Source: a virus
Virus record (IMG/VR): IMGVR_UViG_3300045988_183612
DNA: 64,000 nucleotides
Strand: one strand, 5' to 3'
Position numbers and translations under genes: made by a program. This document shows, piece after piece, positions 4,217 to 5,503 of this stretch. The notes under the pieces are model-generated. The model did not search any database. It was not told the DNA's origin and was given only the letters and a program-made list of their open reading frames with translations. Each line of letters starts with the position of its first letter. The first letter of the stretch is position 1.

Positions 4217-5503
4217 ATGAAACAGGCAGATATAAATACAATACCAAATCATGAATATTTGGAACTTAATTATGTTGCAGAAACAGCTACAGGTAAAGGT
4301 AATAATCAACAGATTATTATGCAGGTTAATGCCAATAATAAGAATGTTTTTGATGTTACTGAAGGTAGAATTGGAATCAGGATAGGAAGGAACAGGCCAA
4401 GGACATATTCACTTCCTATGACTAATTGGGATTCTTTTTATTTGTCTAAGGTAAATAGAGGTTGGTTGCTTACAAAGACTCAAAAAATGGAGAAAAAAAA
4501 GATTACAAAAAAAGGTTTAAGTTTTAATGGCGGCACATATGCACAGACTGGAATTTTCTCTGTTGATTCTATTATAACAAAACTGCTTTCATACGCTAAT
4601 AAGGTTATTTCAGATAATTATTCAACTTCAGTTGAAGATATTTCAGATGAGATGCTTGAATATGGTAATTCGATTTTGACTGAATTAGCTAAGAACCATG
4701 ATTCTATGTCAATTGCAGAGTTTAATAATAAATTAAAAGTATTATATGCTGCAATTCCTAGAAGAATGGATAATTTATCTAAACATTTGGCTAAAAGAAA
4801 GATTGAATTTGTTGATATCATTGACAAAGAGCAGGAACTGTTTGATATTGTGTATTCTCAGGTAAGATCTAATAGTAATTTAGCTAAATATGACACTATG
4901 CCAACAGTTCTTCAGGCCTATGGACTTGAATGGAGACCTGTATCTGACGAAGAAGAGACTAAAATCAAGAAGCTTATGGGAGAAAATGCAAAGCAATATA
5001 AAAATGCTTGGAGAATCATTAATAAAAAGACCGAAAAGGCTTTCAATGAATATTGTGCTAAAGAAAATTTAAGTGATGAAAATAATGGAATATCTCATTT
5101 ATTTCATGGTTCAAGATCAGAAAACTTCTGGTCCATTATAACTAATGGTTTAACAATAAATCCAGTTGGAGTTGTAACTAATGGAAAGATGTTTGGATTA
5201 GGTACATATTTTGCTAATAAGGCAAAAAAATCGATGGGATATACTTCAAGCTCCGGTTCTTATTGGACTCATGGTAGTGAAGCAATTGGATATTTAGGCA
5301 TTTTCAAAGTGGCTACTGGTAAAACATATGATGTAACATCTGCTGAAAGTGATTTAACTTATAATGTTTTACAACAGAGATGTCCTGGCGCTCATTGTAC
5401 TTTTGCTCATGCGGGCCATAGTTTATGTAATGATGAAATTATTGTATATCAGGATCAGCAAAGTACTATAGAATATTTTGTTGAATTTACAGCAGCTCAG
5501 TAA
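4217..5503 (+). CDS. PARP-like ADP-ribosyltransferase (H-Y-E catalytic domain)
   Basis: C-terminal segment LFHGSRSENFWSIITNGLTINP...NGKMFGLGTYFANKAKKSMGY matches the PARP catalytic HGS...GIYFA block. The downstream segment NDEIIVYQD matches the catalytic-Glu motif (YNEYIVY). AAGGAGG RBS. Confidence 0.8.
   Translation: MKQADINTIPNHEYLELNYVAETATGKGNNQQIIMQVNANNKNVFDVTEGRIGIRIGRNRPRTYSLPMTNWDSFYLSKVNRGWLLTKTQKMEKKKITKKGLSFNGGTYAQTGIFSVDSIITKLLSYANKVISDNYSTSVEDISDEMLEYGNSILTELAKNHDSMSIAEFNNKLKVLYAAIPRRMDNLSKHLAKRKIEFVDIIDKEQELFDIVYSQVRSNSNLAKYDTMPTVLQAYGLEWRPVSDEEETKIKKLMGENAKQYKNAWRIINKKTEKAFNEYCAKENLSDENNGISHLFHGSRSENFWSIITNGLTINPVGVVTNGKMFGLGTYFANKAKKSMGYTSSSGSYWTHGSEAIGYLGIFKVATGKTYDVTSAESDLTYNVLQQRCPGAHCTFAHAGHSLCNDEIIVYQDQQSTIEYFVEFTAAQ

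Follow-up and report, generated by a model that had tools for sequence, protein, structure and literature searches.

Why would a giant mobile genome carry a PARP-type ADP-ribosyltransferase, and what would such an enzyme do for it? The question is raised by a stretch of 64,000 nucleotides (nt) from the IMG/VR virus record IMGVR_UViG_3300045988_183612 (hereafter the window, meaning this whole stretch), in which the gene at 4217..5503 on the + strand encodes a protein of 428 amino acids (aa). An original prediction, made from the sequence alone, had described this protein as a PARP-like ADP-ribosyltransferase with an intact H-Y-E catalytic triad that could act in host takeover or anti-defence. 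The enzyme assignment was borne out, and the genomic context favours a takeover or anti-defence role only weakly. The answer we prefer, to which we would give roughly even chances by analogy with studied PARPs, is ADP-ribosylation that is activated by nucleic acids, often reversible and linked to the DNA transactions of giant mobile genomes.

The gene is an intact, uninterrupted open reading frame (ORF) that starts with ATG and is preceded, at 6 nt, by the ribosome-binding site (RBS) AAGGAGG. Stop codons are found throughout the opposite strand, and an ORF lying there at 4618-4827 was dismissed as a shadow of the PARP frame. The protein matches the Pfam PARP family PF00644 with 68 bits (E=1e-18, residues 249-380), where the gathering cut-off is 26.7, and all 38 aligned homologues match the same family. 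A phmmer search with the protein retrieved 57 PDB sequences, all of them PARP1/2/3/16 or tankyrase (best E=1.1e-8), and the 38-sequence family profile matched the WGR-CAT part of PARP1 at E=6.6e-19 along an alignment spanning WGR, helical domain (HD) and catalytic domain (CAT). By the same profile the nearest human paralogue is PARP1, followed by PARP2, PARP3, PARP4 and tankyrase. The AlphaFold2 (AF2) model of the whole protein reached a predicted local distance difference test (pLDDT) of 86 and a predicted template modelling score (pTM) of 0.78, and recovered the ADP-ribosyltransferase (ART) fold, Foldseek placing PARP1 and PARP2 first with E of about 1e-19. Against the PDB, 378 Foldseek matches were obtained at E<=1e-3, and the best 50 of the 378 are all chains of PARP1, PARP2, PARP3 or PARP4. 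The match to the PARP family is far above chance level. In the NCBIfam scan of the protein the sole hit was a tRNA-ligase match at chance level, and the Pfam scan gave no match to the DarT family, the PARP family standing alone at E<=1.

The catalytic ART domain covers residues ~231-428 (4907..5500, +), as delimited by PF00644, phmmer and the profile alignment, and it holds all the motifs on which the prediction had been built (H297-G-S, F326-GLGTYFA-333 and N405-DEIIVY-411). Residue equivalences were taken from a pairwise alignment with PARP1 together with the family profile, and on careful alignment by both none of the triad positions was lost: H297 (codon at 5105-5107, +), Y331 (5207-5209, +) and E407 (5435-5437, +) fall position by position on PARP1 H862, Y896 and E988. 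The three residues are invariant across the 38 close homologues, and among 92 relatives sampled more widely from genomes, plasmids and IMG/VR, H297 and Y331 are each kept in 91 and E407 in all 92. The nicotinamide pocket is otherwise complete, with G298, M325, K338, S339 (5231-5233, +) and Y342 (5240-5242, +) corresponding to PARP1 G863, M890, K903, S904 and Y907. Judging from the fold, the active site and its conservation, the protein is very likely a functional NAD+-dependent ADP-ribosyltransferase. It may build chains or attach single units, as the counterpart of PARP1 Y986 is Asn405 and the acceptor-loop region ahead of the last strands is ~30-35 residues shorter than that of PARP1. In view of this active site, the possibility that we are looking at a catalytically dead or decaying remnant is very remote: the ORF is full-length with a strong RBS, all NAD+-site residues are kept across homologues 30-84% identical, and the 1629 clusters of relatives that can be detected are of uniform length.

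The N-terminal 280 aa had been left as uncharacterised, possibly a helical regulatory domain. The first half of this description no longer stands, since the model and Foldseek find a WGR-like domain and a helical domain there, and the second half holds for residues ~114-224. The WGR-like domain (residues ~12-110; 4250..4546, +) lies within a basic segment (residues 1-112, isoelectric point (pI) 10) and retains the GR.G core (G50, R51, G53), and its G.N and GR.G motifs align with "GTN" and "GRVG" of PARP1. The helical domain, resembling the PARP regulatory domain (residues ~114-224; 4556..4888, +), is formed by five helices in the AF2 model; the profile alignment continues through the HD of PARP1, a conserved "IPRR" standing opposite its "IPHD". 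The top Foldseek matches are the WGR-HD-ART chains of PARP1 (4dqy_C, 4opx_C, 7s6h) and PARP2 (6x0l_P, 7aeo_A), aligned over ~485-500 columns, and PARP1 chains holding HD plus ART, like chains with the catalytic domain only, align over ~360 columns. As modelled, the architecture is WGR-like, HD and ART in this order, which is the minimal plan of PARP1/2/3.

Comparison with known systems places the enzyme more closely. It shares with human PARP1, PARP2 and PARP3, its best structural and profile matches, the domain order as modelled and the NAD+-site residues, and the D-loop region GLxI(A/N)P...G(Y/K)MFG(K/L)G(I/T)YFA is nearly identical; yet it is only 15-21% identical to them, it lacks the zinc fingers, the BRCT domain and the N-terminal tail, and the Trp of the WGR motif is replaced by Glu. 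To our knowledge, HPF1 is not to be expected in bacteria. The PARPs described from bacteria (PMC5966428) have the same order of WGR, helical and PARP_cat domains, the H-Y-E triad and a length of ~400-500 aa, and those of Herpetosiphon, Clostridium difficile CD160 and the Butyrivibrio plasmid pCY360 have the same minimal architecture as the window protein in its model, although identity to the PARP of pCY360, a 361-kb Lachnospiraceae megaplasmid, is only ~30%. The window family departs from these bacterial enzymes in that Pfam is blind to its WGR domain as well (0/38), and the window protein has Glu at the W/Y of their (W/Y)GR motif, with a 5-6 residue insertion following. Moreover, Herpetosiphon and C. 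difficile possess functional PARGs, whereas neither a PARG nor a macrodomain is found near the window gene. The PARPs of large phages (PHROG 23333, those of Cellulophaga phage phi4:1 and of the Xanthomonas jumbo phages XacN1 and Xoo-sp13, as well as those on IMG/VR contigs of 100-206 kb) agree with the window PARP in its modelled architecture, are likewise borne by very large mobile genomes and have some neighbour families in common with the window element. They are 27-42% identical to it, retain YGR, which it lacks, and usually have a macrodomain gene 5' within a module for replication and nucleotide metabolism, whereas the window PARP has no macrodomain and lies beside a relaxase. By fold, then, the window PARP is a divergent member of the known bacterial and phage PARPs of the PARP1-3 clade, and it diverges in four respects: the ~30% identity to the nearest named member, the missing WGR aromatic, the absence of an adjacent eraser and the relaxase neighbour.

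How widespread are such enzymes? Searching a protein database yielded 1629 homologous clusters; the best 120 of the 1629 are 359-434 aa long, 48-100% identical and annotated with PF00644 alone, and the sole relative with an NCBI name (P0112) is a "hypothetical protein". Among plasmids, 21 of the 72,556 records of PLSDB gave matches, all of 100 kb to 1.17 Mb and 20 of them of at least 359 kb. The carriers belong to Firmicutes and Proteobacteria, including Butyrivibrio pCY360, the 502-kb plasmid of Bacillus thuringiensis Bt407, Paenibacillus SC2 and megaplasmids of Variovorax, Vibrio and Pseudomonas, and the matching proteins are mostly labelled "WGR domain-containing protein". Among phages, matches were found in 15 of 50,697 INPHARED records, all of 141-595 kb, several of them labelled poly(ADP-ribose) polymerase, and phrog_23333 is matched over the full length (residues 20-424, E=5.7e-31). 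The IMG/VR scan added 86 relatives of 32-42% identity on contigs of up to 206 kb, and representative genomes with relatives come from Blautia, a Lachnospiraceae metagenome-assembled genome, Anaerotignum, Paenibacillus and Clostridium. PARPs had already been listed in Butyrivibrio, Eubacterium rectale, Paenibacillus, B. thuringiensis and Cellulophaga phage phi4:1 (Perina et al. 2014), and noted in jumbo phages (Iyer et al. 2021, PMC7824862). The expectation that PARP-family enzymes are unusual in bacterial viruses and plasmids is therefore right for INPHARED and PLSDB, where they are rare, but wrong in that they were already annotated there and are abundant in large phages and mega-elements from metagenomes, as the IMG/VR matches and the protein clusters testify. 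The family is neither new nor small, though it is rare in curated collections.

The plasmid matches of a further window protein, 844 aa long (25929-28463), bear the labels "TerD family" or "RING finger family 4". This protein occurs in 17 plasmid records, at least 8 of which (four Variovorax, four Vibrio) are also PARP-positive, and this co-occurrence hints at a gene set common to giant replicons.

For the neighbourhoods of the relatives, ORFs from 95 loci were clustered. Of the 92 PARP loci, 75 have a gene of ~145 aa 5' of PARP, which amounts to 31 of 47 clusters at 90% identity (carriers L014 and L021-L100). In 56 loci it is at most 60 nt away, and elsewhere an HNH-type gene is usually inserted between the two. 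Its product is a TARG1-like macrodomain protein (E=1.2e-27 to human TARG1/OARD1, with weaker DarG-type matches), an example being the gene at L021:9518-9955, directly 5' of its PARP. In most of the large-phage relatives, PARP and TARG1-like macrodomain form a writer-eraser pair. Around this pair, the IMG/VR relatives carry genes for DNA polymerase III (PolIII) alpha, NAD+-dependent DNA ligase, anaerobic ribonucleotide reductase (NrdD), DnaG, RecJ, DnaB, ThyX and a PD-(D/E)XK nuclease, and several neighbour families of the phage relatives are homologous to window genes, namely PolIII alpha, RecJ, RlaP and guanylate kinase. UvrD-type helicases also recur near PARP genes: one is adjacent in locus L005 and in pCY360, and in L009 and L010 it is 1-5 kb off. 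The superfamily 1 (SF1) helicase directly 3' of the pCY360 PARP is the best plasmid match to the 973-aa helicase of the window. Apart from these loosely linked SF1 helicases, no conserved partner gene across PARP loci is common to the window subfamily.

It is on these grounds that we prefer the DNA-linked reading. The domain plan is WGR-HD-ART, the Herpetosiphon enzyme depends on DNA, the neighbours of the relatives serve replication and repair, and an eraser stands beside most of them, all of which points the same way. The Herpetosiphon PARP needs DNA for its activity and that of C. difficile CD160 is highly active in vitro (PMC8120803, PMC5966428). In one compact enzyme of the PARP1/2/3 type, a basic WGR-like domain that binds nucleic acids would be joined to a helical domain acting as autoinhibitor and to an ART domain with H-Y-E. 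Once a DNA or RNA structure is bound at the N-terminus, the block that the helical domain imposes on NAD+ binding would be lifted, and ADP-ribose could then be moved, as single units or chains, onto the enzyme itself, DNA-bound proteins or DNA ends. Most likely, the enzyme would signal or mark discontinuities in the DNA while the element itself is being replicated, repaired or established; the element supplies its own RecA, RecJ, UvrD-type helicases, primase-like protein and DNA polymerase III alpha. What the analysis shows are the fold, the catalytic residues, the operon structure and the genomic associations; catalytic activity, activating ligand, substrates and biological role are inferred, with PARP1-3 and the two bacterial PARPs assayed in vitro as models for the mechanism. 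DNA is a plausible substrate, since PARP3 can ADP-ribosylate DNA ends and TARG1 can remove the mark (PMC5725667).

Several observations weigh against this reading. The macrodomain is absent from the loci of the subfamily (at least 48% identity: L005, L007, L009, L010, L101 and L102), a hidden Markov model (HMM) of 69 TARG1-like partners found nothing under E=0.06 in six-frame translations of the 64-kb window and of the close relatives' loci, and the Pfam results for the window genes contain no Macro, PARG or ARH family. The window PARP gene, beside its relaxase, lies outside the replication cluster. In addition, neither Pfam WGR nor Pfam PARP_reg (PF02877) was matched by any of the 38 family members, and a profile of residues 1-112 gave no match at E<=10 among PDB sequences; with the N-terminal profile and Pfam both blank, the WGR-like domain was assigned from structure only. 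Pfam is equally blind to the helical domain of many bacterial PARPs although models show it (PMC5966428), and the same study gives "YGR" as the motif of the bacterial enzymes. Of the 92 wider relatives, 76 have Tyr and 2 have Trp immediately before GR ("EYGRVG"), whereas the window protein has Glu49 there and its subfamily E, M, N, A or Q, as well as the insertion of 5-6 residues after the WGR motif. In PARP1, this aromatic of the W/Y-GR motif contacts the end of broken DNA, where it packs against the terminal nucleotide. Because this aromatic is replaced by Glu49, and is variable in the subfamily, break sensing or ligand recognition may be altered or lost there.

On the basis of DNA as a plausible substrate, a more specific form of the DNA-linked reading can be formulated, which we regard as rather improbable. 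The PARPs of giant elements would be ADP-ribosyltransferases of DNA ends or nucleic acids that place a reversible cap or mark on the element's own replication or transfer intermediates, and the window subfamily would be a version derived for conjugative entry. If this is true, the marks on DNA ends would shield intermediates from host exonucleases or steer element-encoded repair, and the adjacent TARG1/DarG-like macrodomain of the phages would be the uncapping enzyme. The window subfamily, having neither aromatic nor eraser and lying beside a relaxase, would be adapted to DNA that enters by conjugation in single-stranded or nicked form. The main prokaryotic reservoir of PARP1-3-type enzymes would then lie in large mobile elements and not in sporadic transfer from eukaryotes.

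The alternatives draw on the surroundings of the gene, which is the middle one of a three-gene operon, orf66-PARP-orf47. The operon is preceded by a promoter-like region (3926..3963, +) with a -35/-10-like match at 3926-3953 and the motif TTTTTCTGACATAT at 3954-3963 (+), 37 nt 5' of the ATG of orf66. The first gene, orf66 (4000..4200, +; 66 codons), has its own RBS and its stop codon lies 16 nt before the PARP ATG; the third, orf47 (5516..5659, +; 47 codons), encodes a basic product, again has its own RBS and begins 12 nt past the PARP stop. A hairpin resembling an intrinsic terminator, with a 14-bp stem and a T-run, closes the operon (5667..5699, +). No match was obtained for orf66 in Pfam, PHROG or PADLOC, and orf47 has no family match; a homologue of orf66 stands 5' of PARP in the related element L101, and small ORFs homologous to orf47 are found 3' of PARP in L101 and L102.

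The motif ahead of the operon is not confined to it. As TCTGTCATAT (TCTGWCATAT; also TTTTTCTGTCATAT) it is present in 29 copies in the window against 0.62 expected, nearly all of them 25-45 nt 5' of an RBS and in the same orientation as the gene, the relaxase gene included; besides 3954-3963, examples are 1242-1251 (-), 5829-5838 (+), 8604-8613 (+), 32982-32991 (+) and 63285-63294 (+). There is no -35 consensus alongside the copies, and at about five sites (17067, 31085, 39085, 53399 and 57023) a second motif, TTTTTTATGTAAAAA, stands ahead of the first. TCTGWCATAT is probably the promoter element of the element-encoded sigma factor (gene at 54760-55788), and the PARP operon would use the same type of promoter as the rest of the element.

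On its other side, the PARP gene is 3 kb, and the start of its operon 2.8 kb, from a MOBV (Mob_Pre) relaxase gene (1..1206, -; PF01076, E=3.8e-30) that diverges from the genes on the PARP side. The order of relaxase and then PARP recurs in L001, L002 and the related element L101, and past the window edge, on the relaxase side, there follow a NERD protein and a type IV secretion system (T4SS) coupling protein. An 18-nt perfect palindrome, AAGTGTATATATACACTT (1262..1279), flanked by the relaxase promoter on one side and by the first promoter of the + strand, which diverges from it, on the other, is a candidate origin of transfer (oriT) or operator.

This arrangement would suit an establishment or anti-defence effector, in which PARP is made early after entry and either modifies host proteins for defence or DNA degradation or caps the DNA ends of the element. 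We consider this unlikely, though worth keeping in sight. The operon lies close to the relaxase and the candidate oriT, a position kept in an element with a 77% identical PARP; a Lar-like restriction-alleviation gene follows 8 kb 3', a very acidic 273-aa protein (pI 4.05) is encoded beside the relaxase, and DNA methyltransferases are found near PARP in L010, L005 and L009. Moreover, the leading regions of conjugative elements are hotspots of anti-defence genes (PMC11541004), but the same survey makes no mention of an ADP-ribosyltransferase. Furthermore, the PARP protein has no likeness to known anti-defence proteins, and its phage relatives stand in replication modules with an eraser and not among early genes. 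The oriT is only a candidate, being a palindrome, and the genes are directed away from it. In the paradigm of F and ColIb, leading genes are templated by the transferred strand and run in the opposite direction. A classic leading region was accordingly set aside as the main explanation, the gene orientation misfitting that paradigm and the oriT being a candidate.

Could the operon instead be a toxin or abortive-infection module, in which foreign or broken DNA makes the enzyme burn NAD+ or modify essential targets until the cell is arrested, with the small ORF or a macrodomain as antidote? If so, the host population would be protected or the element stabilised. The position of orf66 gives a layout reminiscent of toxin-antitoxin pairs, the gene sits on a mobile element with other accessory genes, and no eraser is found nearby in the window subfamily. 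In relatives, the TARG1/DarG-like macrodomain 5' of the ART parallels DarT-DarG, a likeness that extends to a possible DNA substrate; however, the window PARP has no DarT domain match, the window has no macrodomain, and we know of no WGR or HD domain in DarT. Such a module seems to us quite doubtful: PADLOC was blank for PARP and nine neighbours and lends no support to a known defence system, orf66 is unlike any known antitoxin, the family is carried by phages themselves within their replication modules, and WGR-HD is the plan of regulated DNA-repair PARPs and not of known ART toxins. Because the relatives lie in replication and repair modules beside an ADP-ribose eraser, the system resembles reversible signalling linked to DNA more than it does a toxin aimed at the host.

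Even less probable is a takeover of the host by modification of RNA polymerase or translation factors, as performed by Alt, ModA and ModB of phage T4, so that host machinery is redirected to the genes of the element. Such phage ARTs do exist, and a similar action has been suggested for the PARPs of jumbo phages (PMC7824862). The element also brings a sigma factor of its own with a dedicated promoter motif, and RNA_pol_A_CTD-like genes lie near PARP in L005 and L009. Nevertheless, the T4 enzymes belong to the R-S-E class of ARTs (classes as in PMC8120803), whereas the present PARP has H-Y-E together with WGR-like and HD domains typical of nucleic-acid-activated PARPs, and nothing in the window ties it to transcription proteins.

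The remaining genes describe the element to which the DNA-linked ADP-ribosylation preferred above would belong. Adjoining the relaxase, the acidic protein (273 aa, 1373-2194) counts 61 D+E against 17 K+R and has no family match; it might be an anti-restriction protein of the DNA-mimic type. Just 3' of the PARP operon lie an HD-GYP phosphodiesterase (5878-7092) and a GGDEF diguanylate cyclase (7235-8368), both with membrane N-termini, and a class A penicillin-binding protein (PBP) gene (8647-10980). The GGDEF and PBP genes are not present in the stretches seen of L101 and L102, and L102 has only a shorter HD-domain gene. The three look like cargo able to rewire cyclic di-GMP signalling and cell-wall synthesis of the host. 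A weak match to a CdiA-CT RNase A-like domain (11360-12109; E=2.7e-5, under the Pfam cut-off) and a Lar-like protein (13724-14092; PHROG 599, E=3.3e-6) point to conflict-related cargo near the PARP operon.

Other downstream genes encode two UvrD-type helicases, RecJ, RecA and a DnaG-zinc-ribbon (primase-like) protein and also a flotillin, a methyltransferase, a guanylate kinase, a 5'-3' exonuclease and the sigma factor. DNA polymerase III alpha (DnaE) is split into three ORFs (42993-44834, 45209-45967 and 51639-53324), which hold, in this order, PHP and pol3_alpha, pol3_alpha and finger, and finger, HHH and OB. The gaps between them measure 374 nt and ~5.7 kb, and the larger one contains other genes (RlaP-like, 5'-3' exonuclease). 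A two-piece DnaE is also seen in some IMG/VR relatives.

Almost all genes of the window are on the + strand and its GC content is 25-33%, for an element of 27% GC and about 300-350 kb. Contigs with these genes are 302-351 kb long and come from gut metagenomes (human gut), and a 103-kb IMG/VR fragment filed as viral has a 98%-identical copy of the 844-aa protein. No tRNA was found by a scan of the 64-kb window, and megablast of window positions 1-20000 against plasmids gave no match. About 10 kb past the 3' end of the window, L105:10469-20438 carries more than 25 consecutive ORFs of 29-247 aa on one strand, none with a Pfam match, a run that resembles early or accessory regions of large phages. 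A bacterial chromosome, which PBP1A, RecA and PolIII alpha might have suggested, was rejected because of the relaxase and T4SS coupling protein, the fragmented dnaE, the mostly small unknown ORFs, the 29-copy promoter motif and the IMG/VR viral call on the 98%-identical fragment. We read the replicon as a giant conjugation-equipped extrachromosomal element whose replication gene set is common with large phages.

Bacterial and phage PARPs have been known for more than 10 years; two are active in vitro, yet no biological role has been assigned to any of them, and how they relate to the eukaryotic PARP1-3 is still debated. To specialists, the PARP gene by itself is no surprise. Its subfamily, large and gut-associated, receives from sequence tools just the label "PARP catalytic domain", and the comparative picture, with carriage confined to megaplasmids and large phages, neighbourhoods of replication and repair genes, an eraser in most relatives and a subfamily devoid of it whose sensor motif has changed, renders the question of function testable. 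Taken together, it suggests that giant mobile genomes use DNA-linked, often reversible ADP-ribosylation as a housekeeping tool.

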